Translations under genes and position numbers: made by a program
Shown here: positions 5,171 through 28,530 of the stretch, one piece after another
Numbering within the stretch: position 1 is the first letter of the stretch
How the letters are laid out: the number at the start of each line of letters is the position of its first letter
Assembly (NCBI GenBank): GCA_963771275.1
Contig: CAVYSW010000010.1
Coordinates: 192,001 to 256,000 of the forward strand
Source: an uncultured Gemmatimonadales bacterium
GTDB lineage: Bacteria > Gemmatimonadota > Gemmatimonadetes > Gemmatimonadales > GWC2-71-9
Length of the DNA: 64,000 nt
Direction of reading: 5' to 3'
The notes under the pieces: generated by a model
The model's input: the letters and a program-made list of their open reading frames with translations, nothing else
What the model was told of the DNA's origin: nothing
Database searches by the model: none

Positions 5171-5189
5171 CTTCAGACGGAAGCGCGAC

Positions 5190-7903: not shown

Positions 7904-9766
7904 ATGGATCTGTCCCAGTACGCCGAGCTGTTCCGGTCCGAGACCCGGGACCATCTCAACACGCTCAACCGGCTGCTCCTGGAATGGGAGCAACGGCCCG
8001 ACCACCCCGAGCCGGTGGCCGGGATCTTCCGCGCGGTCCACACGATCAAGGGGATGGCCGCGACGATGGGGTACGCCCGGGTGGCGGACCTCGCGCACCG
8101 CGCGGAGACCCTGCTGGATCTGCTGCGCCAGTCGCAGCGTCCGGTCGTGGATGCCGAGCTGGAGCTGCTGTTCCGGACGGCGGACGTGCTGGAGGAGCTG
8201 GTCGAGGCGTCGGTGAGTGGGCGCGACGCGACGGTGGACGTGATGCCGCTGCTGGAGGCGCTGCAGGAGGCCGCGCGCGGGCACGAGAAGCCGGAGGAGC
8301 CGGGCCGCGCGCGCCGCCGCATCTCGTTCGTGGCCGCGCCGGTCGGCGTCGGTCGCCGGGTGCTGGTCGTCCTGCGCGCGGATTCCCCGCTCATGGGGGC
8401 GCGCGCGCTGCTCGTGCTCAAGCGCATGGAGCGGCTCGGTCCGGTGATCGGTGTCGAGCCGGCTCCGGCGGCGATCGAGAGCGAGGGGTTCGACGGCCGA
8501 TTCACGTTCCGGGTCGACACGACGGAGGGTGTCGAGCGGATCACGGCCGAGATCCGCTCGGCGGGCGATGTCGAGCAGGTGGAGGTGGATGTGGGGGAGT
8601 CGACCCCCGACGCCGAGCGCGACCCGGGGCGCAGCCGGCATATCCGGGTCGACCTGCGGCGGCTCGACGTGCTGATGAACGTGATCGGCGAGCTGGTGAC
8701 GGCGCGTGGACGACTCGAGCACATCGGCGTTGCCAGGAGCGACCCGGAGTTGGGCGAGAGCGTGGCCGCGGTTTCGGCGCTGACGTCCCGGCTCCAATCG
8801 GAGATCATCCAGGCCCGCATGACGCCGGTCTGGCAGGTGTTCGACCGGTTTCCGCGCCTCGTGCGGGACCTCAGCCGCCAGCTCGGCAAGCAGGTGGTGT
8901 TCCGGGTGGAGGGCAAGGAGATCGAGCTGGACCGCGCGATTCTCGACGAGATCGGCGATCCGCTGGTGCACCTGCTGCGCAACGCGGTGGATCACGGCAT
9001 CGAGACGCCGGAGCGGCGGCTGGCCGCGGGGAAGCCGCCGGAGGGGACCATCGTGCTGGCCGCGCTCCGCGACCGCGGGACGATCGCCATCATGGTGTCG
9101 GACGACGGTCGCGGCATCGACCGGGAGAAGATCCTCGCGGAAGCCAAGCGCCGCGGCGTGGCCGAGGCCGGCGTCGCCGAGCTGACCGACGATCAGCTGC
9201 TCCGGTTGCTGGCCAGCGCGGGGTTCAGCACGGCCCAGCAGGTGTCCGAGGTCTCGGGGCGGGGGGTGGGCGTGGACGTCGTGGTGACGCGGATGCGCGA
9301 GCTCGGGGGCTCCGTCGAGGTCAAGAGCACGCCGGGGGCGGGCACGACCTTCACGCTGCGCCTGCCGCCGACCCTGGCGATCGTGCGGGCGCTGCTCGCG
9401 CGGGTCGGAGCGGAGCGCTACGCCCTGCCGCTCACGCACGTGGCGGAGACCGTCGAGCTTGGCAGCTGGGCGATGACGAGCCTCGACGGGCGGGACGCCC
9501 TGCTCGTGCGCGACGAAGTCTTGCCGCTCGTGCACCTGCGCGAGCTCCTCCAGGTGGATGGCGAGCCGCCGGTCCAGCGTCCGGTGGTGGTCCTGCAGGT
9601 CGGCGACCGGCGCACGGGACTGGTGATCGATCGGATGGAGGGACAGCGGGAAATCGTCGTGAAGGCGTTCGTGCCCCCGCGCGGAACCCTGCGGATCTTC
9701 AGCGGTGCAACAGTGCTCGGGGATGGCGAGCCGGTACTGATCCTGGATGCGGGCGGGCTGGTGTGA
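7904..9766 (+). CDS. cheA: Chemosensory histidine kinase CheA (P1-P2-P3-P4-P5)
   Basis: Hpt FRAVHTIKGMA; dimerisation IRVD..RLD.LMN.IGELV; HLLRNAVDHGIE, DDGRG, GFST, GRGVG; C-terminal CheW-like domain. Confidence 0.96.
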   Translation: MDLSQYAELFRSETRDHLNTLNRLLLEWEQRPDHPEPVAGIFRAVHTIKGMAATMGYARVADLAHRAETLLDLLRQSQRPVVDAELELLFRTADVLEELVEASVSGRDATVDVMPLLEALQEAARGHEKPEEPGRARRRISFVAAPVGVGRRVLVVLRADSPLMGARALLVLKRMERLGPVIGVEPAPAAIESEGFDGRFTFRVDTTEGVERITAEIRSAGDVEQVEVDVGESTPDAERDPGRSRHIRVDLRRLDVLMNVIGELVTARGRLEHIGVARSDPELGESVAAVSALTSRLQSEIIQARMTPVWQVFDRFPRLVRDLSRQLGKQVVFRVEGKEIELDRAILDEIGDPLVHLLRNAVDHGIETPERRLAAGKPPEGTIVLAALRDRGTIAIMVSDDGRGIDREKILAEAKRRGVAEAGVAELTDDQLLRLLASAGFSTAQQVSEVSGRGVGVDVVVTRMRELGGSVEVKSTPGAGTTFTLRLPPTLAIVRALLARVGAERYALPLTHVAETVELGSWAMTSLDGRDALLVRDEVLPLVHLRELLQVDGEPPVQRPVVVLQVGDRRTGLVIDRMEGQREIVVKAFVPPRGTLRIFSGATVLGDGEPVLILDAGGLV

Positions 9767-9799: not shown

Positions 9800-10420
9800 A
9801 TGGATGACGTGCGAGATCTGAAGGAGCTGCAGCTGGACGCGCTGAAGGAGGTCGCGAACATCGGCGCTGGCCATGCCGCGACCGCGCTGTCCCAGCTCAC
9901 GAGCCGGCGCATCATGATCAACGTGCCGCAGATCACCATCTCGCGGCTCGAGGACGTGCCGGAGACGATGGGCAACCCGGAGTCGGTGGTGGCCGCGGTG
10001 CTGATGCACGTGCTCGGCGATCTCACCGGGCGCACGCTCCTGCTGTTTCCGGAGGAGAACGCGCACCTGCTGTGCGATCTGCTGCTGCGGCGGACGCCCG
10101 GGACGACGCGCACCTTCGGGGAGCTGGAGCAGTCCGGCCTCAAGGAGGCGGGGAACATCCTTGCCGGCGCGTACCTGAACGCGCTCTCCGATTTCATGGG
10201 GATGCTACTGCTGCCGTCGGTGCCGAGCCTCGTGGTGGATCTGTCGGCGGCGGTGCTCACCACCACGTATCTCAACTTCGGGCAGGATCGCGACTTCGTG
10301 TTCTGCATCGACACGGACTTCCACTTCACCGAAGCGGACCGCCGCCTGCAGGGGCACTTTCTCCTGCTGCCGGACCTGGCGTCCCTCAAGGCCATCTTCG
10401 ACGCCATTCGCCTGACGTGA
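9800..10420 (+). CDS. cheC: CheC-family phosphatase
   Basis: Two E-x-x-N active-site motifs (DALKEVANIGAGHAATALS; LKEAGNILAGAYLNAL). Confidence 0.92.
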   Translation: MDDVRDLKELQLDALKEVANIGAGHAATALSQLTSRRIMINVPQITISRLEDVPETMGNPESVVAAVLMHVLGDLTGRTLLLFPEENAHLLCDLLLRRTPGTTRTFGELEQSGLKEAGNILAGAYLNALSDFMGMLLLPSVPSLVVDLSAAVLTTTYLNFGQDRDFVFCIDTDFHFTEADRRLQGHFLLLPDLASLKAIFDAIRLT

Positions 10421-10421
10421 C

Positions 10422-13112
10422 GTGATGAACGCGCCGGCGCTCCCTTCCCAGGAGCGGGAGACCCTCCGCTCCTTCGCCCGCCGGATCGATCCCTCCGACC
10501 CCGGCGCGCACAACAATCTCGGCGTCCTCTATTATCAGAAGGGGCTGATCGACGAGGCGATCGAGTCGTTCGCCCGCGCGCTCGAGCTCGACCCGAAGAT
10601 GCTCATCGCGCGGCGCAACCTGGAGATCGCCTACAAGCAGACCGGCTACTACGACCGCCGGGTCGCCGAGCTGCAGGAGCGCCTGCGGGCCGATCCGGCC
10701 GATCGCGACGCCCGCTGGGAGCTCGGGCGCGCGTACGCCTCGCTGGGCCAGCACGACGCGGCCGCGCAGGAGTTTCAGGTCCTGGTGGATCGGAACCCCC
10801 AGGACCTGCCGGCGATCCTGCAAATTGGCCTGGCCGAGAAGCTGCGCGGGCGGCTCGAGCTCGCCACGGAGTGGTTCACCCGGGCGCGCGAGCTGGACGA
10901 CCAGAGCAGCGTGGTGCACTTCTACCTCGGCGAGACCCTGTACAACCGGGGACTGAACGCCGAAGCCCTGGCCGCGCTGGAGCGCGCCGTGGAGCTGAAC
11001 CCCGAGAACGCGGACGCGCACTATCTGCTGGCGTTCGTGTACGGCGATCTGCAGCGTGCCCAGGACGCGCGCGACGCCGCCGCCCGGGCCAAGCGTCTGA
11101 ACCCCACGCTGGGGCGGGCGCAAACCAATCTGTCGCTCGAGCGGTACGCCACGGCGCGCCGCGATGCCCCCGTGCGGGTGCCGCCGGCCCTGATGCCGGA
11201 GATCGCGGAAGGGCGGGCCCTGGCGCACTACAACCTCGGGCTCGCGTTCCGCCAGCAGGGCTACTACGCCGATGCGTTGCGTGAGTACCAGTTGGGGCTC
11301 GAGCGGGGCGAGGACCGGCGGCTCACGCTCCAGGCGATGGCGGAGGTGCAGTTGCTGCGGCGGGACTACCCGGCGGCGCGCGAGCTGTACGCCGGCCTGA
11401 CGGGCGAAGTGCCGGACGTGCCGAAGCTGTGGAACGAGTACGGCGTGGTGCTGCACCAGCTCGGTGAGCCCACCGAGGCGATCCGGGCGTACGGCCGCGC
11501 GCTGGATCTGGCGCCCGACTACGCGCTCGCGCGCAACAACCTCGCGGTCACGCTTGCCCATCAGGGCCGGCACGACGAGGCGGTCGAGGCCCTGCACGAC
11601 GCGCTCCGTGTCGGTCCGGAGCTCGCGGTCCCCCGGCTGAACCTCGGGCTGCTGCTGGCGCACCTGCGGCGCCACCAGCTCGGGCTGCAGGTCTACCGCC
11701 AGGTGCTGGATCTCGATCCCGCCTCCGCGCCGGCCTGGAACGGCATCGGCCTAGTGCTGAACGAGCTGGGGAGGGTGGCCGACGCGCGCAACGCGTTCGC
11801 GCGCGCGGTCGAGGCCGATCCCACCGCCGCCGAGGCGCACTACAACCTGAGCTTCGCGCTCTCCGCCCTGGGAGACTACGACGGCGCGTTGCGCGCGGTC
11901 ACACGGGCGCAGACACTCGATCCCTACTACGTCCCGCAGAAGTTCCGTCTCACCATCGACCTGCAATACGAGGACCCGACGATCGCGGTCGCGCCCGAGA
12001 TTTCGGCGGATGTCACCACAGATCTCGCGCCGCAGCCGCTCCAGTTCGATGCGGGAGTGCTCGACCAGATCTTCCGGGAGCTGGATCGGCCGTTACGGCG
12101 GCCGAGCACCGGACGGGTAACCGATCCGCTTGCCATGGCGCGGGACTACCTGTCGAAGGGCCTGCTGGAGCTCGCGGCCGCCGAGTGCAACCGCGCGGTG
12201 ACGCGGGGCGCCGACGAGACGGAGGCGCTGGCGCTGAGCGGGACGATCTTCGCGCGCCGGGGCCTGCACGGCGAGGCGCTTGAGCGGTTCCGCGCCGCCC
12301 GCGCGCGGGATGCGGAGCGGCACGACGCACGTCTCGGAGAGGGGCGCGCCCTGCTGGCGCTGGGGCGGGGGCGCGAGGCGTTGCCGGACGTGGAGCGCCT
12401 GGCGGCCGAAGCCGGCACGGACCCCGACGTGCTGATCGTCCTGGCCGAGGCGCGGCGCGCCGGGGGCGACCCCGGCGGTGCGCTGGAGGCGGTGCGGTGG
12501 GCGCGGGAGCGGGCGCCGGAGCGGGCCGACGTGCTCAAGCTCGAGGGCGACATCGCGTTCGGCCTGGGCGATCTCGGCGCGGCGCGCCACGCGTTCGAGG
12601 CGGCGGTGCGCCTCGATCCGCGCCTCGCGCAGGCGTTCGTGGCACTCGGCGCGGTCCACGAGCGGCGCGAGGACTGGCCGGCGGCGGAGGCCGCCTATCG
12701 CACGGCGCTGGACCGGCTGCCGACGTACAGCGAGGCGGCGGTGCTGCTCGCCCGGGTGCTGCGCCGCACCGGCCGGGCGCGCGTCGCGGTGAACCTGCTG
12801 GCGGACCTCCTGGGGAGCGATCCGTCGGACCTCGATGCGCTCCTCGCGCTGGCCCACGCGTTGGTGGACGACGGGCGCCTCGAGGCGGCGCTCCAGGCCT
12901 TCCACCGCGTGATGGCGCATGATCCCCAGCACGTCGCGGCGCACTTCTATGCGGGGGTCGCGCTGGCGCGGCTGCGCCGCTACAGTGAGGCGGTGCGCTG
13001 CTGGGAACGCGTCGTGGCGCTGGATCCGACCGGGCCCTACGCGCAGCGGGCGCGGCGGCACGCGCGGACGGCGCTGGACCTCAAGCACATCTTCCGGGTC
13101 GAGGCGGCCTGA
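10422..13112 (+). CDS. Large cytoplasmic multi-TPR protein (~896 aa)
   Basis: Many canonical TPRs (AHNNLG.LY...G...EA...F.RALELDP etc.) in blocks joined by Pro-rich linkers; no signal peptide. Confidence 0.85.
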   Translation: MMNAPALPSQERETLRSFARRIDPSDPGAHNNLGVLYYQKGLIDEAIESFARALELDPKMLIARRNLEIAYKQTGYYDRRVAELQERLRADPADRDARWELGRAYASLGQHDAAAQEFQVLVDRNPQDLPAILQIGLAEKLRGRLELATEWFTRARELDDQSSVVHFYLGETLYNRGLNAEALAALERAVELNPENADAHYLLAFVYGDLQRAQDARDAAARAKRLNPTLGRAQTNLSLERYATARRDAPVRVPPALMPEIAEGRALAHYNLGLAFRQQGYYADALREYQLGLERGEDRRLTLQAMAEVQLLRRDYPAARELYAGLTGEVPDVPKLWNEYGVVLHQLGEPTEAIRAYGRALDLAPDYALARNNLAVTLAHQGRHDEAVEALHDALRVGPELAVPRLNLGLLLAHLRRHQLGLQVYRQVLDLDPASAPAWNGIGLVLNELGRVADARNAFARAVEADPTAAEAHYNLSFALSALGDYDGALRAVTRAQTLDPYYVPQKFRLTIDLQYEDPTIAVAPEISADVTTDLAPQPLQFDAGVLDQIFRELDRPLRRPSTGRVTDPLAMARDYLSKGLLELAAAECNRAVTRGADETEALALSGTIFARRGLHGEALERFRAARARDAERHDARLGEGRALLALGRGREALPDVERLAAEAGTDPDVLIVLAEARRAGGDPGGALEAVRWARERAPERADVLKLEGDIAFGLGDLGAARHAFEAAVRLDPRLAQAFVALGAVHERREDWPAAEAAYRTALDRLPTYSEAAVLLARVLRRTGRARVAVNLLADLLGSDPSDLDALLALAHALVDDGRLEAALQAFHRVMAHDPQHVAAHFYAGVALARLRRYSEAVRCWERVVALDPTGPYAQRARRHARTALDLKHIFRVEAA

Positions 13113-13114: not shown

Positions 13115-14269
13115 ATGGCGATCGAGGGACCGCTCAAGGAGCTCGGACTGCACGACGTCTTCCACCTGCTCGACCTGAGCCGGAAGACGGGGGTGTTGCG
13201 CGTCACCTCGCCGCTGCGGCGGAACCAGGGAACGATCTACTTCGATCAGGGTGCCGTGGTCGCCGCCGAGATCCGCTCGAATCCGCACCCGCTGGGGGCG
13301 CTGCTGGTGCGCTCCGGGAAGATCACGGAGTCGGAGCTCGCGCGTGCGCGGGCGTGCCAGGAGGCGGGCGACACGCGGCGCCTCGGCGAGATCCTCGTCG
13401 AGCTGGGGGCCGTGGCGCAACGGGAGCTCGAGCGGCTCATCCGGATGCAGATCGAGGAGGTGGTCTTCGAGGTGATCGGTTGGCGCGAGGGCTACTTCTC
13501 GTTCGTCGAGGGCCCGCTCGGCGGTCTGCGGACCGAGGCGGGAATCCGGATCCCGACCGAGGCCCTGCTCATGGAGGGGGCGCGCCGGATCGACGAGTGG
13601 TCGCGGATCGAGCGGCAGGTGCCCCATCTTGGAGTCGTGCCGGCGCTGGCCACGGGAGCGGACCAGCGCGAGGCGGTGCTGGACCTCCGCCCGCCGGAAT
13701 GGGAAGTGCTGGCCCTGATCGACGGCACCCGTGACCTGCGCGAGATGGCGGCGGCCCTGGGGCGGTCGGAGTTCGACGTGGCCAAGACCGTGTTCGGCCT
13801 CTACAGCAGCGGCGTGGTGACGCTGCACGATCTCCGGCGGGCCGAGCTGGACGCGGCACGGCCGCAACGGGTCGAGGACACCCTGGCCGAGCTGGGCCGC
13901 CTGCTCGAAACGGGGGATGTCGAGACGGCGCGCCTCGAGGCGGAAGCGCTGGCGGCGGGCTACCCCAACGACCCGCGGACGCACCTCGTCGCCGCGCGGG
14001 TGCAGCTGGCCGCCGGGCGGGCGCGCGAGGCCGAGGCCGCAGCCCGACGCGCGCTGGGGCTCGACCCGGCCCTGGCGGATGCCCACCGGCTGCTCGGGGA
14101 CGCGCTGCTCGCGCAGGGACAATTCGGGGACGCCGCGGGGTGGTGGGAGCGCTGGCTCGCCCTGTCGCGCGAGGCGGGCGAGGATGGGCTCCTGCGCGGT
14201 CGCCTGACCAAGGCCCTGGCCGCCGCGCGCGCGCTGCAGGGCTACCTGAAGGAGCACCATGACGGATGA
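13115..14269 (+). CDS. DUF4388 (PATAN-like) + MshEN-like + wHTH-like + TPR protein
   Basis: MAIEGPLKELGLHDVFHLL..SRKTG.L, W.EG.F.F, ALLMEGARRIDEW; RLGEILVELG motif; C-terminal TPRs. Confidence 0.82.
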   Translation: MAIEGPLKELGLHDVFHLLDLSRKTGVLRVTSPLRRNQGTIYFDQGAVVAAEIRSNPHPLGALLVRSGKITESELARARACQEAGDTRRLGEILVELGAVAQRELERLIRMQIEEVVFEVIGWREGYFSFVEGPLGGLRTEAGIRIPTEALLMEGARRIDEWSRIERQVPHLGVVPALATGADQREAVLDLRPPEWEVLALIDGTRDLREMAAALGRSEFDVAKTVFGLYSSGVVTLHDLRRAELDAARPQRVEDTLAELGRLLETGDVETARLEAEALAAGYPNDPRTHLVAARVQLAAGRAREAEAAARRALGLDPALADAHRLLGDALLAQGQFGDAAGWWERWLALSREAGEDGLLRGRLTKALAAARALQGYLKEHHDG

Positions 14270-15053
14270 CATCCGGGCGCTGACCGCGGAGCTGGCGCGC
14301 GATCCGAACAGCCTGGCGTTCCTGCGGCTGGCGGAAGCGCTGCGGCTGCGGGAGCAGCTCGACGCGGCGGCGACGGTGGTGCGGGCCGGCCTCGAGCGTC
14401 ACCCCGATCGCGCCGACGCGCACGACCTCTATGCCCGGATCCTGGCCGATGCCGGGAGCGTCGACGCCGCGCGCGAGGCCTGGGAGCGGGCGTTCGTGCT
14501 GGACCCGCGGCACGTCGGCACGCTGAAGGGCCTGGCCTACCTGGCGTTTCGCGACGGCGACCTCGACGGCGCGCTCGACCGTCTGGAGAGCGCGTTGGGC
14601 GTGGATCCGACCGACGAGAGCGTGGTGCAGGCACTCCAGACGGTGCGGGAAGAGGCGGAGCGACGGCTCGCCGAGGAACGCATCCGTGCCGGGACCGACA
14701 TCTTCGCCGGCTTCGAAGGCGCGGAGCACGGGCTGCTCCTGGCGGACCGTCGCGGGCTCGTGCTCGGCGGAGCGCTGCGGAGCGTCACCGGCAGCGACGT
14801 GGCGGAGGAGGTGGCCGCGTACGTGGCCGGGGCCGCGCAGGAGGCCGAGCGCACGGCGCGGCTGCTGGAGCTCGGCGACTGGGGCGCAATCGTGGTCGAG
14901 GGGACGGCCGGCCACCTCCATCTGTCGGCACCGGCGCCGGACGCGCTGCTGCTGGTGAAGCGGGATCGTGCGGTGCCGGCGGGCCGCGTGGCGCTGCTGG
15001 CCCGGCGGGCGGCCGCGGCAGCCCGCGGCTGGCTCGAGGCGCAGCGCGGATGA
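14259..15053 (+). CDS. TPR + C-terminal roadblock/LC7 domain protein
   Basis: N-terminal DP.S.AF..LAEALR TPR region; C-terminal GLLLADRRGLVL roadblock-type beta pattern. Confidence 0.7.
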   Translation: MTDDIRALTAELARDPNSLAFLRLAEALRLREQLDAAATVVRAGLERHPDRADAHDLYARILADAGSVDAAREAWERAFVLDPRHVGTLKGLAYLAFRDGDLDGALDRLESALGVDPTDESVVQALQTVREEAERRLAEERIRAGTDIFAGFEGAEHGLLLADRRGLVLGGALRSVTGSDVAEEVAAYVAGAAQEAERTARLLELGDWGAIVVEGTAGHLHLSAPAPDALLLVKRDRAVPAGRVALLARRAAAAARGWLEAQRG

Positions 15054-15400
15054 CGGCCCATCTGGTGCGAATCCTCGACCAGGTGACCCGGGTCCGCGGT
15101 GTGCGCGGCGCGCTGCTCGTCGCCGCCGAGGACGGGCTCGTCATCGCCGAGTCCCTGATGGAGGGTGTGCGTGGCAACGCGCTGGCAGCGCTCGCCGCCG
15201 CGCTGGCCAGCCGCCTGGAGCGCGCGGCGGCGGCGACCGGGGTCGGGAGCGCGACCTTCGTGCACCTCGAGGCGGCGCGCGGCGCCCTGCTGCTGGTGCC
15301 GGCCGGGCAAGGCGTGCTCCTCGTCACCATCGCGGACTCCGTGGTCAACGTCGGCCTGGCCCGCCTCGAGATGCTGCGCGCGGTGGCGGAGGTTGCATGA
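15050..15400 (+). CDS. Roadblock/LC7 (MglB/MglC-like) protein
   Basis: 116 aa; GVRGALLVAAEDGLVIA...NVGLARLEM is a typical roadblock signature. Confidence 0.85.
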   Translation: MTAHLVRILDQVTRVRGVRGALLVAAEDGLVIAESLMEGVRGNALAALAAALASRLERAAAATGVGSATFVHLEAARGALLLVPAGQGVLLVTIADSVVNVGLARLEMLRAVAEVA

Positions 15401-15864
15401 GGCAGGCGCGGGTCATCGAGCCGTGGTTGCGGGCGCCGCTGGAGCGCTTCCTGGGCGAGACCGGCGCGCGGCTCGCGCTGCTGATGACCCCGGCCGGGCA
15501 GGTGCTGGCACAGTACGGCTTCGTCCGGGCCGTGGACGTGATGGCGGCGGCCGCGCTCGGGGCCGGCATTGCCGCCTCGACGGGTGAGATGGCGCGGATG
15601 CTCGAGGAGCGGAGCTTCCGGGCGCTGAATCACCAGAGCCCGCGGCATGGGATCTTCCTCGCGCAGTTCGACTCGCCGCGCGGCCCGCTGCTCGCGCTCG
15701 TCGTGTACGGTCCGGACTCATCGATCGGGCTGGTGCAGCTATTCTTCGAGGGGCTCGTGGGGGACCTCGCCGAGGCGGCGCCGCCGGCCCCCCGGGGAGC
15801 CCCCGTGCTGGCGGCGGACTTCGAGCGGGACCTGCACGACAGTCTCGCCACCCTGTTCCGGTAA
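15397..15864 (+). CDS. mglB: MglB-like roadblock protein (GTPase-activating partner candidate)
   Basis: ATGA overlap; [36 protein letters not shown] resembles MglB; sits directly upstream of mglA. Confidence 0.75.
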
Positions 15865-15869: not shown

Positions 15870-16469
15870 ATGTCGCTCGTCAACTTCACGACCCGCGAAA
15901 TCACCTGCAAGATCGTCTACTACGGCCCGGGCCGCTCCGGGAAGACGACGAACCTGCAGTACATCTACGGACGGGTGCCCGAAGAGCGGCGGGGGCGGAT
16001 GGTCTCGCTGGCGACGCAGACGGACCGCACCCTGTTCTTCGACTTCCTGCCGCTCGAGCTGGGATCCATCTCGGGCTTCGCCACCCGGTTCCAGCTGTAC
16101 ACGGTGCCCGGTCAGGTCTACTACAACGCGACGCGCAAGCTCGTGCTGCAGGGCGCGGACGGTGTGGTGTTCGTGGGTGACAGCCAGGCCCGCCAGCTCG
16201 ATGAGAACCTGGAGAGCCTGCAGAACCTCCAGGTGAACCTGCTGGAGCACGGCATCGATGTGCGCGAGGTGCCGTACGTGCTCCAGTACAACAAGCAGGA
16301 CCTGCCGCGCGATCTCATCCTGACGCCGGAGGAGCTCGACGATCAGCTCAATTTCCGCGGGGTGCCGAGTTACGGTGCGGCGGCGGTGACCGGTCAGGGG
16401 GTGTTCGAGACGCTGCGCGCCATCTCGGAGCGGGTGCTGCGCAAGCTGAGCGAGGACGAACCCGGGTGA
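15870..16469 (+). CDS. mglA: MglA-family small Ras-like GTPase
   Basis: [66 protein letters not shown]. Confidence 0.95.
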
Positions 16470-18415
16470 CGGCAGAGCTGAACCCTCGGTTCACGTTCGA
16501 CGCGTTCATCGTCGGTCCGAGCAACCGGCTGGCGGTGGCGGCGGCGCGCACCGTGGCGGAGAGCCCGGGCACCGCCTACAACCCGCTGTTCATCTACAGC
16601 GCGAGCGGCCTGGGGAAGACCCACCTGCTCATGGCGGTCGGCACGCATGCGCGATCGCTCTCCCCCACGCTGTCGGTCGCGTACCTCACGCTCGAGGAAT
16701 TCGTCGAGGCGTTTCACGCCGCAGTCGCGGCCGGCCAAGGGGAGGCGTTCGGCCGCCGCTTCGACGCGGTGGACATCGTGCTGATCGATGACGTGCAGTT
16801 CCTGACGACCCGGCTCGAGACGCAGGCGGAGCTGCTGCGTCTCGTCACGCAGCAGCTCGAGGCGGGGCACCAGGTGGTGCTGTCCAGCGACCGCCCGCCG
16901 CAGGAGATCGAGCAGCTCGACGAGCGGCTCATCTCGCGCTTCGCGGGCGGCCTGGTGGTGGACATCGGACCGCCGGAGTTCGAGACGCGGCTCGCGATCC
17001 TGCGCCGCAAGGCGGAGGAGCGCGGCGTCGATTTCGAGCGGGCGATTCTGTCGGCGGTCGCGGCGTTCGAGGCGCGCAACGTGCGCGAGCTGTTGGGTCT
17101 GTTGAACCGGCTCATCGCGTTCCAGGCCGTGAATGAGGGCACGTTGACCACCGAGGGCGTGCGCACGCTGCTGGGTCTGGAGGAGACGGAGCCGCCCGTC
17201 GAGCCGACCGAGCCGGTGGCGCCGGGCGCGGCGGACGAGTTCGCCGAGTTCGTGTCGACGGTCGGGGCGGCGCTCGCGCAGCAGATGGACTCGTGGCGCC
17301 GCCGGCTGCACGAGGCCCGGGCGTATTGGGAGGGTCGGGGGTACCGGGTACAGCGGATCACCGGTCCGCTCGAGCAGGACACGCCCGTCGGGGCCGAGGT
17401 GCTGATCAAGCAGTTCGAGGAGGACGTGGAGCGCCTGCAGGCACTCGAGCAGGAGATGACGCTGCTCGAGCCGGCGCGGGCGGGCGACCCGGTGTTCCGC
17501 GATCCGGATCGGGTGGCGGATGCCGAGGCGCTGGTGCACGCGGCCAAGGAGGGGCTGGCACCGCCTCCCGGGCCCTCCGCGGCGTGGGCATTCGAGGACT
17601 TCGTGGGCACCGGGTCGAACCAGCTCGCCCTCACCGCCGCCCGCGCGGTGGCCGAGCAGCCGGGTACGATGTACAACCCGCTCGTCGTGATCGGATCCAC
17701 GGGCCTCGGCAAGACCCACCTGCTGCACGGCATCGGGCACGCGCTCTCCGCCGCCCCGGGCTCCCTGGTGGCGTGCCTGTCCGCCCAGGACTTCCTCGAC
17801 GAGCTGGTGCAGGCGATGGAGCGCCACCGGGTCGATGCATGGCGCTCGCGGTATCGCCGGGCCACGGCGTTCCTGCTGGACGACATCCACCTGCTGGCGC
17901 ACAAGGAGCAGTCGCAGGAAGAGCTGTTCCATCTGTTCAACGCGCTGCTCGACACGCAGCGGCAGCTGGTGTTCACGGCCAACGTGCCGCCGCGCGAGCT
18001 GGAGGGCATCGACGACCGGCTCGTGACGCGACTCGGTGGTGGCCTGGTGACCGAGCTGCAGCCGCCCGACCGGGAGCTGCGGCTGGCGGTCGTGACGCGC
18101 GAGCTCAAGGGCCGGCAGGGCGAGGTGGATCCCGATCTCGCGGCCTACCTCGCCGATCGGCCGGCGACGTCGCTCCGCACCGTGACGGGGACGGTCCAGC
18201 GCGTCGTGGGCGAAGCCGAGCTGCAGGGGGTGTCGCCGTCGGTGGCCCAGGCCCGCGCCCTGCTCGAGGGGACGCCCGAGCCGGCGCGCCGCGCGACGCC
18301 GCGGCTCCGGACGAGCGGCATCGTGGTCTCCCCGAGCGGCGGCGTGCGCAGCCGGGAGAAAGTGATCTGGCGGTGGCCCAACATCACCGACCGGATCATC
18401 GAGGACGTCGGCTGA
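16466..18415 (+). CDS. Protein with two tandem DnaA/Hda-type AAA+ domains, lacking the DnaA N-terminal and DNA-binding domains
   Basis: Domain 1: [50 protein letters not shown]. Domain 2: FEDFV...SN.LA, YNPL...[33 protein letters not shown]. No domain IV HTH. Confidence 0.85.
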
Positions 18416-20034
18416 TGGCGATCAAGGGCAGCCTCAAGGAAGCGTCCCTGCCGGACGTGCTGCAGCTGCTCGCGCTCGGCCAGAAGACGGGATGCCTGTC
18501 GATCGCGGACCGGAACAACTTTGGCTACATCTACTTCGACCGCGGCCGGATCTCGTACGCGTCGATCGTCAACCGGCGGGACCGGCTGGGCGACATCCTC
18601 GTCAAGGCCGGGAAGCTGAAGGTGGAGCAGTTGGAGGCCGCGATCGCGCGTCAGGAGCGCGAGCGCGATCGGCGGCTCGGGCAGATCCTGATTGCCGAGG
18701 GGATGATCTCGCGGGCCGACCTGGAGCGCTACATGCGGCTCCAGATCGAGGAAGCCGTCTACTTCCTGTTCACGTGGACCCAGGGGACGTTCAACTTCGA
18801 GTCGGATGTCCGGCCCGACCACGAAGAGTTTCTCGTGTCGATCAACCCGGAGTCGCTGCTGCTCGAAGGCGCCCGCCGGGTGGACGAGTGGAGCCTGATC
18901 GAGAAGAAGATCCCGTCGTTCGACCTGATCTTCTCGGTGGAAGCCGAGCGGCTGCAGGCTTCCGAGGTGGAGCTGACGCCGGAGCAGGCGCAGATCCTCA
19001 GGCTGATCGACGGCAAGCGGGATGTGACGCGGGTGACCGAGGACTCGGGCCTGGTGGAGTTCGACGTGGGGAAGGCCCTCTATGGGCTGATCTCCGCCGG
19101 CTTCGCGCATCGGGTCGGGCGGAGCCAGGCGCCGAAGGTGCAGGAGGTCAACGAGAGCCGGATTCAGGAGCACCGCAACCTCGGCGTCGCGTTCTACAAG
19201 ACGGGCATGCTGGACGAGGCCGCCCGCGAATTCCGGCGCGTCACGGATCTGCGGTCGAACGACGGGGGTGCGCATTTCCATCTGGGGCTCGTCGCGCTGC
19301 GCCAGGCGCGGTGGCGTGATGCGGAGGCGTCGCTGCGCCAGGCCGCCGAGCTGCTGGGCGCCCGCCCGGGCGTGCTCCACAATCTCGCGCTCGCCTTCGA
19401 GCAGCTCGGCTTCCTCGATCGGGCCGACTCCGCGTACGGCGATGCGGCCGGCCGCGCCCGACACGATCCCCGCATTCTGATCGGGTGGGGGATCGCCGCG
19501 CTGCAGCGCGGGGACTTCCAGGTGGCCGAGGGGCGGCTCGACCGCGCGCGGGAAGTCACGGGGGAGAAGCCGCTGCCGGCGGTGTGGTACTGGGGTCGGG
19601 CGCTCGCGGCGGCCGGCCAGGACGCGTTCGATCAGGCCGAAGCGTTCCTCCGGGAAGGGCTGGAGCGGCACCCGCGGCATCCGATTCTGACGAACAACCT
19701 GGCGGCCCTCGTAGAGCTCGTCGGCGACGCGGCGCAGGCCGAGGAGCTGCTGCGCGACGCGCTCGCCGACGAGCCCGCCGTCCCGCAACTGTCGAAGAAC
19801 CTGGGCGACCTGCTGTACCGGTCGGGGCAGTACGACGACGCGGCCAGCGCCTACGCGCGGGCCGTCCGTCTCCAGCCGGACCTGGGCGACGACGTGTACT
19901 TCAAGCTGGGCAACATCGCCTACCGGCGCGGCGAGCGGGAGCAGGCCGCGGCCTACTGGAAACAGTCCCTCGAGCTGAATCCCAGCCACGAGTTGGCGCG
20001 GACCAACCTCGACACGCTCAGCGCGCTCGTCTGA
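18415..20034 (+). CDS. DUF4388 + tandem MshEN-like + TPR protein
   Basis: [19 protein letters not shown]...QKTG.L, RLGDILV/RLGQIL motifs, WTQGTFNF, SLLLEGARRVDEW; C-terminal TPRs; TGATG overlap. Confidence 0.85.
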   Translation: MAIKGSLKEASLPDVLQLLALGQKTGCLSIADRNNFGYIYFDRGRISYASIVNRRDRLGDILVKAGKLKVEQLEAAIARQERERDRRLGQILIAEGMISRADLERYMRLQIEEAVYFLFTWTQGTFNFESDVRPDHEEFLVSINPESLLLEGARRVDEWSLIEKKIPSFDLIFSVEAERLQASEVELTPEQAQILRLIDGKRDVTRVTEDSGLVEFDVGKALYGLISAGFAHRVGRSQAPKVQEVNESRIQEHRNLGVAFYKTGMLDEAAREFRRVTDLRSNDGGAHFHLGLVALRQARWRDAEASLRQAAELLGARPGVLHNLALAFEQLGFLDRADSAYGDAAGRARHDPRILIGWGIAALQRGDFQVAEGRLDRAREVTGEKPLPAVWYWGRALAAAGQDAFDQAEAFLREGLERHPRHPILTNNLAALVELVGDAAQAEELLRDALADEPAVPQLSKNLGDLLYRSGQYDDAASAYARAVRLQPDLGDDVYFKLGNIAYRRGEREQAAAYWKQSLELNPSHELARTNLDTLSALV

Positions 20035-20846
20035 TGGTGGCGAGCGAGGACCCCGGACTCCCGGCGCTCCTGGCGCAGATCGCGCGGGCGCGCGGCCTCG
20101 ACTGCGAAGCGTACAAGCAGAGTTGCCTGCGGCGGCGGCTCGCCGTCCGGATGCGCGCACGCGGGGCGCACACCTACGCCGACTACGCCCGGGTGCTCGC
20201 GGCCGACGGAGGCGAGTACGATCGGCTGCTCGACGCCCTGACGATCAACGTGACGAAGTTCTACCGCAATCACGAGACGTGGGATGCGCTGGCGGAACGC
20301 TACCTGCCGGACGTGTGGACGAGGCGACGCGGTGCGGTGCGCTGCTGGTCTGCGGGGTGCGCGTCCGGCGAGGAGCCGTACACCATGGCGATCCTGCTGC
20401 TCGAGTGCGCGCGGCGGCTCGGCGAGAGCGGGCCGCTCCAGGCGAGGGTGGACGCCACCGACCTCGACCGCGTGAGCCTCGAGCGCGCCGCGGTGGGACG
20501 CTATCGCGCGGCCGCCTTCGAGGAATTGCCGCCGGCGCTCGCCGACCGGTACTGCGCGCCCGGCGAAGTCCGGGAGATCGCGCCGGCGGTCCGCGCGCTC
20601 GTGCGGTTCCAGCAGCACGACCTGCTGCGGGACCCGCCGCCGCGGGCACCCTATGACGTCGTGCTCTGCCGCAACGTGGTGATCTACTTCGATCGCGCGA
20701 CGCAGGACCGGTTGTTCGCCGGGTTCGCCGACGCGCTGGCGCCCGGCGGGATCCTGGTGCTCGGCAAGGTCGAGACCTTGCTGGGGGCGGCGCGCGGCCG
20801 CCTGCGCCTCGACGACACCCGCGAGCGCATCTACCGGCGTCCATGA
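20034..20846 (+). CDS. cheR: Protein-glutamate O-methyltransferase CheR
   Basis: LTINVTKFYRN, WSAGCASGEEPYT, ATD, CRNVVIYF. Confidence 0.94.
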   Translation: MVASEDPGLPALLAQIARARGLDCEAYKQSCLRRRLAVRMRARGAHTYADYARVLAADGGEYDRLLDALTINVTKFYRNHETWDALAERYLPDVWTRRRGAVRCWSAGCASGEEPYTMAILLLECARRLGESGPLQARVDATDLDRVSLERAAVGRYRAAAFEELPPALADRYCAPGEVREIAPAVRALVRFQQHDLLRDPPPRAPYDVVLCRNVVIYFDRATQDRLFAGFADALAPGGILVLGKVETLLGAARGRLRLDDTRERIYRRP

Positions 20847-21337
20847 CGGGGTCGCCCGGGAATCAGGCGGTGGGGCTCGGGCACTACGCGGTGGCCCGGG
20901 GTGGCGGCACCCTGGCCTGCCTCGGTCTCGGGAGCTGCGTGGCCGTGGTGCTGCATGACCCGGAGGCGCAGGTCGGCGGGCTCGCGCACGTGGTGCTCCC
21001 GTCGACCTCGCTCTCCCGCGACCGCTCCAACCCCGGCCGCTTTGCCGAGACGGCCGTGCCCCTGTTGATCGCCGAGACGCTGCGCGCGGGGGCAGTGCGC
21101 GGGCGCCTCTCGGCACGCCTGGTGGGTGGGGCCAGCATGTTCACCAACCTGGTGCCCGCCGGCGCGGTGCAGATGGGCCAGCGGAACGTCAATGCGTGTC
21201 GCGCCGCGCTGGAGGCGGCGGCGATCCCGATCACGGGAGAGGCGGTGGGAGGCGAGATCGGGCGCTCGGTCTGGCTGGTCGTGGAGTCGGGCGCGCTCAC
21301 CGTGCGGTCCGTCGGACGTGAGCCCGAACGCCTCTAG
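20843..21337 (+). CDS. cheD: Chemoreceptor glutamine deamidase CheD
   Basis: [35 protein letters not shown]. Confidence 0.92.
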
Positions 21338-22412
21338 CGGGGGCCCGGCCCGCACGGTGCTCGTCGTGGACGACAGCGCGCTGATGCGCCGCGTGCTGAG
21401 CGACCTGATCGAGCAGTCGGGGCGCTATCGCGTCGTCGCCGCCGCGCGGGACGGGATGGACGCGCTGGAGAAGGTCCACCGGTACCGCCCGGACGTGGTG
21501 ACGATGGACCTCGAGATGCCGGAGCTCGACGGACTGGGCGCGATCGGCTACATCATGAGCGAGGCGCCGACGCCGATCGTCGTGGTGAGCGCCTATGCCG
21601 GACCGGGAACCGCCACGGCGATCCGCGCGCTCGAGCTCGGGGCGGTCGAGATCGTCGCGAAGCCCGGGGACCGGCAGCGGGCCACCCTCGAGGCGATCGG
21701 CCCGGCCCTGCTCACGGCCCTCGATGCGGCCGTCGCCGCGGACGTCGCGCGCGTGCCGGTGCTGGCCCGGCGTCCGACGCCGGCGCTGCCGATCCGGTCG
21801 CACGGGGTGGCGGAGATGCAGGGGCGCGCGCGGGTCGCGGTGGCGATCGCCGCGAGCACCGGCGGCCCGCGAGCGCTTGCCGAAGTGATCCCGCGCCTCG
21901 CACCCGAGGGGAACGCCGGCGTGCTGATCGTGCAGCACATGCCGCCCAAGTTCACCCGCAGTCTCGCAGAGCGACTCGATCAGGGCAGTGCGCTCCGCGT
22001 GGTCGAGGCCGACGACGGCGTGCCGTTCCTCAGCGACACGGCGTACATCGCCCCGGGCGATTATCATATGCGGGTGGAGCGTTCCAGCGACGGGCCGCAG
22101 GTGCGGCTCGACCAAACGCCGCCCCTGTGGGGGGTGCGGCCGGCCGCCGATCCGCTGTTCCGGTCCGTGGCGGCGGCGTTCGGCGCGCGCGCCGTAGGGG
22201 TGGTGCTGACCGGAATGGGCCGGGATGGTGCGGCAGGGCTGCGCGCGATCCGGGATGCCGGTGGCGCGGGCATCGCCCAGGATCGCGCCACGGCCGTGAT
22301 CTACGGCATGCCACAGGTCGCGGTCCAACTCGGCGGCGTGGAGACCATCGCGCCGCTGGATGCGATCGCCGCGCACATCGCGGCGGCGGTGGGGCGCCGG
22401 GCGGGTCCGTGA
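21318..22412 (+). CDS. cheB: Protein-glutamate methylesterase CheB (REC + methylesterase)
   Basis: [19 protein letters not shown]; catalytic [21 protein letters not shown] start at 21318. Confidence 0.95.
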
Positions 22413-22837
22413 CGACCTGCCTGCTCGTGCGCAGCGCGGACCGCACGGTCGCCCTCCCGCTGGAGGACCTCGAGCAGGTGCTCACGATCGACACCACGGT
22501 TCCCGCTCCCGGTCTGGTGCCCGCCGTCCGCGGCGTGGTCGCGGTGCGGGACGGCCTCGCGCCGGTGGTCCATCTCGGCGCGCTGATCGCCCGGAGTGCG
22601 GCACCGGCCGAGCGCGGCAGCGTGGGGGTCGTGGTGCTTGCGGGGACGCGGCGGGTGGTGCTCGAAGTGGACGAGGCTGTGGATCTCGTGCGACAGGTTC
22701 CCGAACCGCTGCCGCCCGAGTGGGGGACGGGGTGGGCATCGGGCGGCGTCCGGTGGGCGGGGGCGCTGGTCCCCGTCGTGGAGGTGGGCGCGCTCGTCGA
22801 GCGTATGGGATCGCGCAGCGCGGAGGCAGCCGCATGA
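22409..22837 (+). CDS. cheW: CheW-like adaptor (2 of 3, divergent)
   Basis: ALPL..LEQV, V.GVV.VR..LAPVVHL, LEVDE; GTGA overlap with cheB. Confidence 0.72.
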
Positions 22838-23319
22838 GCACGGGCGATGACGTCCAGCTGGTGGTGTTTCGTGTCGGGTCGCAGGCGTTCGCCGTCAACA
22901 TCTTCGAGGCCGAGCGCATCCTGCGATATCAGGAGCCCACGCCCCTGCCCAGCGCCCCGGCCTTTCTGGAAGGGGTCTTTGTGTTCGGCGAGCAGGTGAT
23001 TCCGCTGGTGGATCTGCGGAAGCGGCTCGGCGCGCCCGCGCCGATCCGCGACGAGACGCGGCTCGTCGTGCTTGCCCTCGATGTCGGGCCGGTCGGCATC
23101 GTGGTGGATGCCGTGCTCGCCGTGCGCAAGGTGGCGGCCGACGCGATCAGGCCGCCGTCGGGCCTCGTCAAGGGACTCGCCGCCGAATACGTGAACGGCA
23201 TCGCCATCGTTGACGGCCGCACGGTCGTGATCCTCGCCGCGACGCGACTGCTCTCGTCCACCGAGCAGGTCAGCGTGCGCGACCTTCTCGTGGAGGCGGG
23301 TCCATGGGCGAATCGATAG
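22834..23319 (+). CDS. cheW: CheW adaptor (3 of 3)
   Basis: QLVVFRVG.Q.FAVNI, TPLP.AP.FLEGV, IPLVDLRKRL, GIVVDAV. Confidence 0.9.
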   Translation: MSTGDDVQLVVFRVGSQAFAVNIFEAERILRYQEPTPLPSAPAFLEGVFVFGEQVIPLVDLRKRLGAPAPIRDETRLVVLALDVGPVGIVVDAVLAVRKVAADAIRPPSGLVKGLAAEYVNGIAIVDGRTVVILAATRLLSSTEQVSVRDLLVEAGPWANR

Positions 23320-24167
23320 CCGCGGCCCTGCGCGCCGCGTACGAAGGGATCGCGCGCCAGCTCGAGCAGGTGCGCTCCTCCGCGGAGCGCGAAGTGGTCA
23401 AGCGCGACATCATCGCGCTGTTCAAGACGGTCGATCAGGGTCTCGCCGACCTGGCGGCGCTGAAGGAGGACATCCGGGTCCTGGTGGACAAGTACAAGCA
23501 GCTCCAGGTGGGGCAGAGCGGCGACCGCGCGCCGCAGTTCACGGGCCAGGTGCCGGCCGTCCACACGAGCCACATCGACGCCTCCACGCTGATCGAGAAG
23601 GGATGGCACCTGATCTCGCTGGGGGACTATGACGGGGCGATTCAGGCGCTGGAGAAGGCGCTGCACTATGCGCCGGGTGACACGCAGGCCGAGTCCCTGC
23701 TGGGGTGGGCGCAAATGCGCCACGAGCAGTATGACGAGGCGCTGCAGAGCTTCCAGCGCGTCCTGACAAAGGAGCCGGCCAACGCGCTGGCACGGATCAA
23801 CGTCGGGTACATCTGCCTGAAGAAGCGGATCTTCGGCGAGGCCATCGAGCACCTGTCCAAGGCGATCCGGCTCGACAACGACAAGAAGGCGACGCTGTAC
23901 GCCCACTACTATCTCGGGCTGGTCTATCTCGAGCGGGAGATGTACGAGGACGCCCAGACCTTCTTCCGGAAGACGCTGGCGCTCGGCCCCAATCTGATCG
24001 AGGCCTATTTCGAGCTGGGACGGGCCCAGTGGTATGGTGGCGACCCGGCGGGAGCGAAGCAGACGTGGGCCGACGGGGTCAAGGCGAACCGGTTCACCCC
24101 CTGGGGCGCGCGCTGCCAGGAGGCGCTCGATCTCGTGGCCCAGGGCCAGGAGCCCCCGCGCTCGTAG
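23304..24167 (+). CDS. Coiled-coil + TPR protein
   Basis: N-terminal coiled coil followed by about 5 TPRs; no signal peptide. Confidence 0.8.
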   Translation: MGESIAAALRAAYEGIARQLEQVRSSAEREVVKRDIIALFKTVDQGLADLAALKEDIRVLVDKYKQLQVGQSGDRAPQFTGQVPAVHTSHIDASTLIEKGWHLISLGDYDGAIQALEKALHYAPGDTQAESLLGWAQMRHEQYDEALQSFQRVLTKEPANALARINVGYICLKKRIFGEAIEHLSKAIRLDNDKKATLYAHYYLGLVYLEREMYEDAQTFFRKTLALGPNLIEAYFELGRAQWYGGDPAGAKQTWADGVKANRFTPWGARCQEALDLVAQGQEPPRS

Positions 24168-25021
24168 CGTGGCTGCTCGCCCTCGCGGCGATCGCGCAAG
24201 GGCCCGGCTTTGTCGAGGTGAACGACGTCCGGGTCGTCTATTGGGGCGGTGACGAGCGCCTGGCGACGGCGCTGGCCGAGTACGCCGACGGGGCGGGGGA
24301 GTGGCCCGGGCTCCCGCCAATCGATCCGTTCCCTATCACCATCATCGTCACGCGCTCCGAGACCCGGTTCGACTCGCTGACGCGCCGGCGGCTGCCCGGC
24401 TGGGCCGGCGCGGCCGCCTTCCCACGCGCCAACACCATCGTGCTGAAGCTCGATGGCGATCCGATCCCGACGCTGCGTCACGAGCTCGCCCACCTGATGC
24501 TCGCGCGGGTCGCGCCGCGCGTGCCCCTGTGGTTCGCCGAAGGGTACGCGGCCCGGGCGGCCGGCGAGTGGAGCGGGCTGGACGCGCTGAGCGTGAACTG
24601 GCAGCTCGCGCGGGGCCGCACGCCGACATTCGCGCAGCTCGATCGAGAGCTCCGCGCCGGTCCGTCGAGCGCCCGCGCCGCCTACGCGCTCGCCATGGCC
24701 GCGGTGCTTTACCTCGAACGGCTGGGTGGGGATCGCGGCCTCCGCCCCCTGATCGACCATCTGGCCGAGGCGCCCGACTTCGAGACCGCGGTGCGCCAGA
24801 CCTACCTCGCGTCCATGGAGACGATCGAGGACACGTGGCGCGGCGATCTCCGGAAGCGCTACGGGTGGCTGCTGCTCGCCACGTCGTTCACCGCGTTCTG
24901 GAGCCTGGTCGGCCTGGCCGTCGGCATCGTCTGGTGGCGCCGCCGTCGGCGCGACCGCGTCCGCCGGGCCGCGCTCGACGAGGGTTGGGTGGTGCCGCCG
25001 GGGCCGGACGCGAGTGCTTGA
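24164..25021 (+). CDS. Membrane-anchored zinc metallopeptidase (peptidase MA/gluzincin-like); start uncertain
   Basis: LRHELAH plus downstream P.WF.EG third-ligand motif; N-terminal hydrophobic signal; C-terminal TM helix followed by an Arg run. Confidence 0.72.
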   Translation, partial: VAWLLALAAIAQGPGFVEVNDVRVVYWGGDERLATALAEYADGAGEWPGLPPIDPFPITIIVTRSETRFDSLTRRRLPGWAGAAAFPRANTIVLKLDGDPIPTLRHELAHLMLARVAPRVPLWFAEGYAARAAGEWSGLDALSVNWQLARGRTPTFAQLDRELRAGPSSARAAYALAMAAVLYLERLGGDRGLRPLIDHLAEAPDFETAVRQTYLASMETIEDTWRGDLRKRYGWLLLATSFTAFWSLVGLAVGIVWWRRRRRDRVRRAALDEGWVVPPGPDASA

Positions 25022-27190: not shown

Positions 27191-27265
27191 GGGGCTGTAG
27201 CTCAGCTTGGTTAGAGTGCCGGTCTGTCACACCGGAGGTCGCGGGTTCGAGCCCCGTCAGCCCCG
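27191..27265 (+). tRNA. tRNA-Asp(GTC)
   Basis: Acceptor GGGGCTG/CAGCCCC; anticodon arm CCGGT-CTGTCAC-ACCGG; GTTCGAGCC T-loop; CCA not encoded. Confidence 0.96.
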
Positions 27266-27292
27266 TTCAGGCGTAGCGCGCGTGTTCCACGT

Positions 27293-27331: not shown

Positions 27332-27341
27332 CCCGGCGGTG

Positions 27342-28527: not shown

Positions 28528-28530
28528 GGC

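Follow-up and report, generated by a model that had tools for sequence, protein, structure and literature searches.

The AAA+ core of the initiator DnaA is known as a replication device, and its known relatives, Hda, DnaC and IstB, serve replication or transposition. DnaA has one AAA+ module plus a helix-turn-helix (HTH), and Hda has one module plus a clamp-binding motif, which is of the QL[SP]LPL type. Here we describe a gene, dnaA2, that encodes two DnaA-type modules in one chain without the HTH. It lies in a 64,000-nucleotide stretch of DNA from an uncultured Gemmatimonadales bacterium (GenBank assembly GCA_963771275.1, contig CAVYSW010000010.1, positions 192,001 to 256,000 of the forward strand; hereafter the window), inside a cluster of genes for a chemosensory (Che) pathway, MglB and MglA, and PATAN-domain proteins.

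The closest described settings for such a cluster come from the control of cell polarity and type IV pili. In Myxococcus xanthus, MglA is reported to recruit SgmX, a protein of 14 TPRs that carries PilB to the leading pole, and PATAN proteins are described as co-occurring with SgmX in Myxococcus (10.1101/2024.03.11.584430). In cyanobacteria, PatA-type regulators are reported to bind PilB1 and PilC through their PATAN domain (10.1101/2021.06.11.447907). A survey of prokaryotic small GTPases places PATAN genes near some MglA genes and assigns a Gemmatimonadetes MglA to its group 1, and in the text of the survey available to us the word 'DnaA' occurs 0 times (PMC4316618). No double DnaA-type protein with MglA or PATAN is described in the papers searched, as judged by listings and abstracts, a scope that leaves table S2 of that survey (mglA neighbourhoods, possibly relevant) outside. 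The novelty lies in how this DnaA-clade AAA+ ATPase is built and in the functional setting where it occurs: a doubled DnaA core that lacks the domain for DNA recognition is conserved within a cluster for sensing and polarity, in a soil phylum that is widespread but has seen little genetic study.

Domain architecture of dnaA2

The dnaA2 gene (16466..18415, + strand) runs from a GTG start to a TGA stop, encodes 649 aa and has a third-codon G+C of 0.93, like the adjacent genes. The protein begins at position 102 of the DnaA model and consists of module 1 (DnaA domain III with lid, aa 1–236, 16466..17173), a linker (aa 237–375, 17174..17590), module 2 (a second DnaA domain III, aa 376–605, 17591..18280) and a tail (aa 606–649, 18281..18412). 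Both modules were delimited by profile, alignment and structure model, and span model positions of about 102–336.

An earlier note on this DNA had proposed two complete DnaA domain III modules, with domain I and the domain IV HTH absent, and the profile searches bear this out. Pfam Bac_DnaA (PF00308) matched dnaA2 in two stretches (E 1.4e-105; 350.9 bits, cut-off 23); the higher-scoring stretch spans profile positions 1–162. The NCBIfam DnaA equivalog model TIGR00362 gave 277.5 bits for module 1 (aa 1–240) and 225.2 bits for module 2 (aa 360–649). Neither DnaA_N nor Bac_DnaA_C was matched in dnaA2 down to E 0.1. The motifs quoted in that note (Walker A, IDDVQ and LDDIH, RLISRF and RLVTRL, and the tail) are all found in the translation. 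Both single-module scores are under the TIGR00362 cut-off of 343.9 bits, while the whole protein reaches 497.6 bits because the scores of its two modules add up; automatic annotation can therefore report a false second dnaA. The Hda model TIGR03420 (cut-off 194.8) gave 194.2 bits for the whole protein, and 98 and 101.6 bits for modules 1 and 2; an Hda-type origin of the modules was rejected on these per-module scores.

In an alignment with the DnaA and Hda of E. coli and the bacterium's own DnaA, both modules follow DnaA in each column, beginning where domain III begins and continuing through the sensor II helix. Their identity is 44% and 38% to E. coli DnaA domain III, and 42–43% to B. subtilis DnaA in the structural match. 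Module 1 was superposed by Foldseek on B. subtilis DnaA domain III with a TM of 0.94 and a root-mean-square deviation (rmsd) of 1.6 A over 234 columns, at 42% identity. The AlphaFold2 model of dnaA2 has a mean pLDDT (the per-residue confidence of the model) of 87.2 and is confident inside the domains.

The linker had been described as Pro/acidic and helical. The Pro/acidic part is a disordered stretch at residues 239–258, and residues of about 258–363 form a confidently predicted, family-specific helical bundle (helices at aa 258–290, 296–304, 310–334 and 347–363). Folded alone, the linker gave three long helices joined by two short ones, with a pLDDT of 85.1, and its sequence blocks DEF..F, W..G, L and F.DP.R..EAE are kept even in the most distant members of the family. 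In the profile search no family was matched by the linker (aa 241–375) or by the last 50 residues, and a look-up of the linker in the ESM Atlas gave no usable match. The best fold-search match, an EzrA spectrin-like repeat, had a Z of 6.2 (rmsd 3.6, 114 aligned), with other three-helix bundles near; this is under the level meaningful for helical bundles, so that no family was assigned and the neighbours are regarded as generic.

The tail consists of a disordered tether (residues 608–629, pLDDT <50) followed by a conserved C-terminal peptide, EK-x-[VI]-W-x-W-P ... R-[LIM]-[IV]-E-[DE]-x-x, which is kept up to the chain end. Each of E631, K632 and W637 occurs in 90% or more of 126 family members. 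The three-helix linker and the tethered C-terminal peptide are the hallmarks of the dnaA2 family. Certain chaperones bind TPR clamps through their C-termini, and by analogy the conserved acidic peptide, its flexible tether and the TPR-rich cluster suggest that the peptide may be a docking motif for a TPR domain.

Active-site conservation and origin of the modules

Conservation of the ATP sites was counted in an alignment of the 126 family members, numbered by their E. coli DnaA equivalents. The site residues of module 1 are K51 (Walker A), D108/D109 (Walker B), D142 (sensor I), R154, R158 (arginine finger) and R207 (sensor II). The Walker A Lys is invariant (126/126), the two Walker B Asp are kept in 126 and 124 members, the sensor I Asp (E. 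coli D269) in 110, the sensor II Arg in 121 and the arginine finger (E. coli R285) in 72. In module 2 the equivalent residues are K416, D472/D473, N506 at the sensor I position, R518, R522 and R571. Here the counts are 118 for the Lys, 120 and 114 for the Asp pair and 32 for the sensor I Asp, the rest being mixed; the sensor II Arg is found in 98 members, with His in 14, and the finger in 119. The sensor II region of module 2 had been thought divergent, but R571 is kept and the degenerate position is sensor I.

The most conserved unit of the protein thus draws on both modules: in 105/126 members the ATP site of module 1 (Lys, Asp, Asp, and the Asp of sensor I and Arg of sensor II) is intact together with the arginine finger of module 2. 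A pseudo-dimer in which one catalytic site predominates would show this pattern. Of the 126 members, 54 have lost the module 1 finger, 51 of which retain the Lys-Asp-Asp of module 2, and 8 members have lost the P-loop and Walker B of module 2 and retain both fingers. In the studied dnaA2 the five module 1 site residues, both fingers and all module 2 site residues except N506 are intact.

A phylogeny of the modules against DnaA and Hda had been suggested, and like the per-module scores it makes both of them DnaA-type. The tree comprised 65 rows and came from a quick search, with many deep branches unresolved. In it, the main group separates into a clade of module 1 sequences (support 100) and a clade of module 2 sequences (support 84), and both clades fall among DnaA sequences, a placement that depends on the chosen outgroup, E. 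coli Hda. The two clades mirror each other in topology, indicating that the duplication predates the diversification of the family.

dnaA2 is not the initiator of its genome

The genome (3.86 Mb in 11 contigs, 96.7% complete) contains three Bac_DnaA matches, which are the two dnaA2 modules, at 190.9 and 167.2 bits in the genome profile search, and one on contig C3. The latter shares a 481-aa frame with the sole Bac_DnaA_C match of the genome, and searches with E. coli queries placed a canonical dnaA at C3:1086847-1088196, followed by dnaN at C3:1088441-1089541. The canonical dnaA that the note had expected elsewhere in the genome is therefore present, and the possibility that dnaA2 is the genome's only dnaA was rejected. 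In the loci examined, dnaA2 was never seen beside dnaA or dnaN; its place apart from dnaA-dnaN, in a Che/Mgl cluster, agrees with the proposal of an initiator-derived ATPase in a signalling context. dnaA2 is an initiator-derived ATPase and not the initiator.

As the note had expected, the double module is not an artefact of assembly either. Contigs of a sequencing run from a different study tile positions 16273-18600 with 0 or 1 differences per piece, and a single piece (17148-17737) joins the end of module 1, the linker and the start of module 2. Given these independent contigs, the full-length relatives and the divergence of the two modules, an assembly artefact or collapsed duplication was rejected. 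Joints that skip about 1100 bases were found in two runs and considered as a deleted form; their shorter side is only 23–26 letters long and falls at the two Walker A regions, and they were read as canonical dnaA of other organisms. No RNA data were among the sequencing runs listed.

dnaA2 is coupled to mglA and to a PATAN/TPR gene

The note had proposed translational coupling of dnaA2 to mglA. The gene directly upstream (15870..16469, + strand, 199 aa) encodes a true MglA, with an E of 3.4e-78 to M. xanthus MglA over residues 1–194, and the TGA that ends it overlaps the start codon GTG of dnaA2 in the sequence GTGA. On the other side, the dnaA2 stop overlaps the ATG of a PATAN/TPR gene (18415..20034, + strand; 539 aa; DUF4388, 2e-38) as TGATG at 18413-18417.

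Both junctions recur in the relatives. In published genome pairs, mglA is directly upstream on the same strand in 83/85, the exceptions being G105, where 763 nt separate the two genes, and G115, whose mglA lies on a different contig. Eighteen published loci contain both genes. In 11 of them the end of mglA and the beginning of dnaA2 share 4 nt, in 1 they share 1 nt, and in the remaining 6 they are separated by 0–14 nt. Between the end of dnaA2 and the beginning of the PATAN gene the overlap is 1 nt in 14/18 published loci, so that dnaA2 is tied to PATAN/TPR as tightly as to mglA. The order CheA-CheC-TPR-PATAN-TPR/Roadblock-Roadblock-mglB-mglA-dnaA2-PATAN/TPR-CheR-CheD-CheB-CheW is kept in 19/20 20-kb loci from diverse relatives (18/19 published loci, omitting the unpublished G096). 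The earlier note had been silent on the PATAN/TPR coupling and the surrounding Che cluster, as it had on the asymmetric ATP-site conservation and the conserved C-terminal peptide.

A role for dnaA2 as a nucleotide-dependent scaffold for MglA had also been suggested. It is weakly supported, by the gene order and by a predicted contact between the two proteins. The complex prediction scored 0.58 against 0.00 for the best of three controls, with runs agreeing in at least 51% of contacts and a partner pLDDT of at least 76. In the benchmark for this score the passing mark is reached by 116/157 solved complexes and 2/215 mismatched pairs, and scores of 0.60 or less within the passing range comprise only 18/157 solved complexes together with both of the passing mismatches.

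The remainder of the cluster lies on the + strand like dnaA2. Upstream are CheA (7904-9766), CheC (9800-10420), an 896-aa TPR protein (10422-13112), a PATAN+TPR protein (13115-14269), a TPR+Roadblock protein (14259-15053), a Roadblock protein (15050-15400) and an mglB-like Roadblock gene (15397..15864; 155 aa including Met; E 2.6e-8 to T. thermophilus MglB). The mglB-like gene is the third Roadblock gene, and its ATG overlaps the stop of the preceding one; in a plain list of open reading frames it is masked by a longer frame, 14959..15864. Downstream of the PATAN/TPR gene are CheR (from about 20034 to 20846), CheD (20843-21337), CheB (to 22412), CheW (22360-23319), a TPR protein (23304-24167) and, as the last gene of the cluster, an MA-type peptidase (24029-25021; a weak match to Peptidase_MA_2, 1.2e-9). 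The flanks of the cluster are on one strand, with yggS-divIVA-ileS-dksA-rluD on one side (window 779-7096) and the dcw cluster, comprising mraW, ftsI, murE, murF, mraY, ftsW, murC, ftsA and ftsZ, on the other (window 27207-42460). This flanking order is kept in 5/5 other genomes examined (G141, G066, G121, G126 and G040).

Signalling and pilus genes in the genome

Searches of the genome with the window proteins as queries found no second CheA, CheW, CheR or CheB. A second, free-standing mglB-mglA pair is present at C3:160088-161200 (− strand), whose MglA is 51% identical to the cluster copy, and most relatives have two MglA matches too. Three matches to methyl-accepting chemotaxis proteins are all on contig C3, distant from the Che cluster. 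There are five matches over the cut-off to T2SSE-type ATPases, two of them adjacent, and no match to flagellin in the genome at its 96.7% completeness.

The PATAN/TPR protein directly downstream of dnaA2 contains two 24-residue MshEN-like stretches (aa 57–80 and 87–110, with 6 residues between). They fit a loosened form of the c-di-GMP-binding motif, as it is defined in PMC5013675, and fail its strict form. The upstream PATAN paralogue (13115-14269) has one MshEN-like stretch, which likewise departs from the strict motif.

Distribution and natural variants of dnaA2

Relatives were sought in a collection of 5.8 billion proteins. The best 120 listed are 604–662 aa long and 57–100% identical, with a query coverage of at least 93%. 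Their source names include 'DnaA/Hda family protein' and 'ATP-binding protein', both of Gemmatimonadales or Gemmatimonadota, and 'chromosomal replication initiator protein DnaA', the last because proteins of the dnaA2 type pass the DnaA cut-off by their summed modules. Nearly every member that bears a source name belongs to Gemmatimonadota.

Within the phylum, 150 other genomes were searched at a threshold of E <= 1e-70. A dnaA2 match was obtained in 94/150 genomes, or 92/148 without the unpublished G057 and G096. No canonical DnaA reached this threshold in the 150-genome search, the best having an E of 8.3e-61 (query 4–251). By family code, dnaA2 was matched in 67/71 genomes of f1, 21/31 of f2, 2/2 of f3, 1/1 of f4 and 1/1 of f5, and in 0/6 of f6, 1/16 of f7, 1/2 of f8 and 0/20 of f9–f12. 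Searched against representatives at 50% identity, the list was headed by double-module proteins of 640–700 aa, with identities falling to about 34%. In a low-G+C branch (P0177 and relatives), one protein is source-named 'Candidatus Cloacimonetes bacterium 4572_55' and two are named as Gemmatimonadetes. The family looks confined to Gemmatimonadota and a few neighbours, because in the list for this branch about 28 double-module matches give way to ordinary DnaA. Locus scans of genome contigs with five distant members found only one-module canonical dnaA loci (80/80 kept), and a scan of metagenome contigs with P0177 likewise found only ordinary dnaA loci.

The cluster has natural variants, which show dnaA2 to be an accessory part. 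In G115, dnaA2-PATAN/TPR is retained and mglA is not adjoining. In three genomes (G036, G047 and G113) mglA is followed directly by PATAN/TPR, so that dnaA2 is dispensable there, and two others have short forms: G083 encodes module 1, the linker and the C-terminal peptide without module 2, and G105 encodes module 1 and the linker only.

In other lineages, DnaA-type modules occur in fusions. Eight clusters of proteins combine MshEN with Bac_DnaA (P0184, P0202 and six more); these are about 1870–2000 aa long, with a second DnaA module near the C-terminus. P0398 is a shorter MshEN + Bac_DnaA form and P0478 a two-module MshEN form. P0225 has two Bac_DnaA modules and a C-terminal receiver domain. 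Many proteins of 1300–2150 aa have a long TPR array followed by one Bac_DnaA, under source names that include Sumerlaeota and Hydrogenedentota, and further fusions are to HEAT repeats + DUF835 and to zinc ribbons (P0399, P0424, P0409, P0426 and P0401 complete the fusion proteins listed). P0181, with two modules and a Bac_DnaA_C, is a different thing from dnaA2. The fusions with TPR, MshEN and receiver domains tie DnaA-type modules to the kinds of partner that are encoded around dnaA2, and these domain combinations suggest that the initiator ATPase may be used more widely outside replication, in roles that are unstudied.

A proposed role for dnaA2

We favour, at slightly better than even probability, the view that dnaA2, which is not an initiator, serves the Che-MglA-PATAN pathway as an adaptor or switch gated by ATP; this pathway would probably steer type IV pili. 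In this proposal module 1 would be the working ATP site, and module 2 would act mainly as donor of the arginine finger, with a second nucleotide site that is slower or structural. The chain would behave as a pseudo-dimer whose ATP state gates assembly. Assembled dnaA2 would bind MglA, and the C-terminal peptide or the linker would bind the TPR/PATAN adaptor encoded directly downstream. Inputs from ATP, from GTP through MglA, and perhaps from c-di-GMP through the PATAN insert would in this way be combined ahead of the output step. That output, by analogy with Frz-MglA-SgmX-PilB in Myxococcus and with PATAN-PilB/PilC in cyanobacteria, is most likely the polarity or activity of type IV pili.

Several observations weigh against this proposal. 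The short forms G083 and G105 indicate that the double module is not always needed, which weakens the idea of a pseudo-dimer, and the genomes that go without dnaA2 also count here. The relative placement of the two modules is uncertain in the AlphaFold2 model, with a predicted TM-score (pTM) of 0.51. The pilus output is argued entirely by analogy. A gene order that is common within one bacterial order may stem from common descent and not from function, and flanks of divIVA and dcw/ftsZ suit a role in the cell cycle no less than one in motility.

In a bolder form of the proposal, an initiator-type AAA+ ATPase would have become the nucleotide-driven partner of a Ras-like GTPase. The double DnaA module would form an ATP-assembled polar oligomer, read by MglA-GTP and by a c-di-GMP-sensing PATAN/TPR protein; the position of the cluster between divIVA and dcw/ftsZ raises the idea that such an oligomer might adjust the timing of pole identity or of pilus polarity to the cell cycle. 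We regard this form as doubtful. An ATP/GTP double switch of this kind would, if true, be a new class with no counterpart in the Myxococcus polarity module.

If the adaptor or switch role is correct, an ATP-driven part has been added to the MglA polarity switch, so far described with GTPase regulators and scaffolds only. The cluster would then be a natural system with chemosensory, GTPase, c-di-GMP and ATPase inputs in one operon.

Alternative explanations

A position between divIVA and dcw/ftsZ, both here and in the five other genomes, would also suit a regulator of the true initiator. This position is also the one new hint for the co-oligomerisation with DnaA, and the link to replication, that the note had raised as a possibility. 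The dnaA2 modules would dock on DnaA-ATP oligomers through AAA+ contacts, as Hda does with its arginine finger, so that polarity signalling would be linked to the initiation of replication or to the cell cycle. The resemblance of both modules to E. coli and B. subtilis DnaA is in keeping with this, as is the conservation in module 2 of the finger and of the equivalents of E. coli R227 (106/126) and L290 (114/126), and no separate Hda turned up in the genome by profile search or with E. coli queries. Against it, a loose clamp-binding pattern in the first 40 residues was found in only 1/126 relatives, and not in the studied dnaA2, while the per-module Hda scores are far under the cut-off of 194.8. 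The gene sits among Che/Mgl/PATAN genes and never beside dnaA or dnaN, and related modules are fused to receiver, MshEN and TPR domains, not to replication domains. We therefore judge this explanation improbable.

The earlier note had dnaA2 lacking a DNA-binding domain, which is correct for the double-strand-binding HTH. It may be less so for single strands: E. coli DnaA V211 and R245 presumably contribute to binding of the single-stranded, unwound origin, and in module 2 the V211 equivalent is V or I in 101/126 members and the R245 equivalent is R in 87/126. Module 2 could accordingly be read as an ATP-dependent grip on single-stranded DNA, used for instance in DNA uptake via type IV pili or as a tether between polarity and the nucleoid, and the genome does encode type IV pilus-type ATPases. 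But the R245 equivalent in the studied dnaA2 is Q482, the module 1 positions are altered in most relatives (H in 84/126 and E in 99/126), no competence genes were seen in the cluster, and the short forms retain module 1 rather than module 2. A single-strand-binding ATPase thus seems distinctly unlikely.

A nucleotide-independent scaffold, that is, a decaying paralogue retained for its shape only, would account for the loss of the module 1 finger in 54 members and of the module 2 P-loop in 8, and for relatives with short forms or no dnaA2 at all, but is very unlikely given that the module 1 Walker A, Walker B and sensor II residues are kept in nearly every member, which is not the pattern of a pseudo-enzyme, and that only N506 departs from intact sites in the studied protein.

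Comparison with known systems

The Walker A, Walker B, box VII and sensor II residues of E. coli DnaA align with those of both dnaA2 modules. dnaA2 differs from DnaA in having neither domain I nor the domain IV HTH, in its two modules, extra linker domain and C-terminal peptide, and in its genomic setting, a Che/MglA/PATAN cluster, with the normal dnaA-dnaN pair located elsewhere. Hda/HdaA is, like dnaA2, a DnaA-derived AAA+ protein without domains I and IV, and the whole-protein score of dnaA2 comes within a bit of the Hda cut-off; however, Hda has a single module and an N-terminal clamp-binding motif, and neither dnaA2 module alone scores much more than half of that cut-off.

The cluster as a whole resembles the Frz-MglA/MglB-SgmX system of Myxococcus xanthus, in that the genes for a Che pathway, MglA/MglB, additional Roadblock proteins and large TPR proteins lie together. 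It differs in that all parts are in one co-directional gene string, and that the proteins named with MglA in the Myxococcus report, in the text of it available to us, include no DnaA-like ATPase (10.1101/2024.03.11.584430).

Type II AAA+ proteins (p97/Cdc48, NSF and Rix7) share with dnaA2 the presence of two modules per chain with unequal site conservation, and appear among the Foldseek matches. The rmsd to p97 and Rix7 is about 19–24 A, calculated with a dnaA2 model whose inter-module geometry is uncertain, and so gives no indication of a module arrangement shared with type II proteins. These belong to the classic clade and form closed hexamers, whereas the dnaA2 modules belong to the initiator clade, whose described AAA+ proteins form open spirals.

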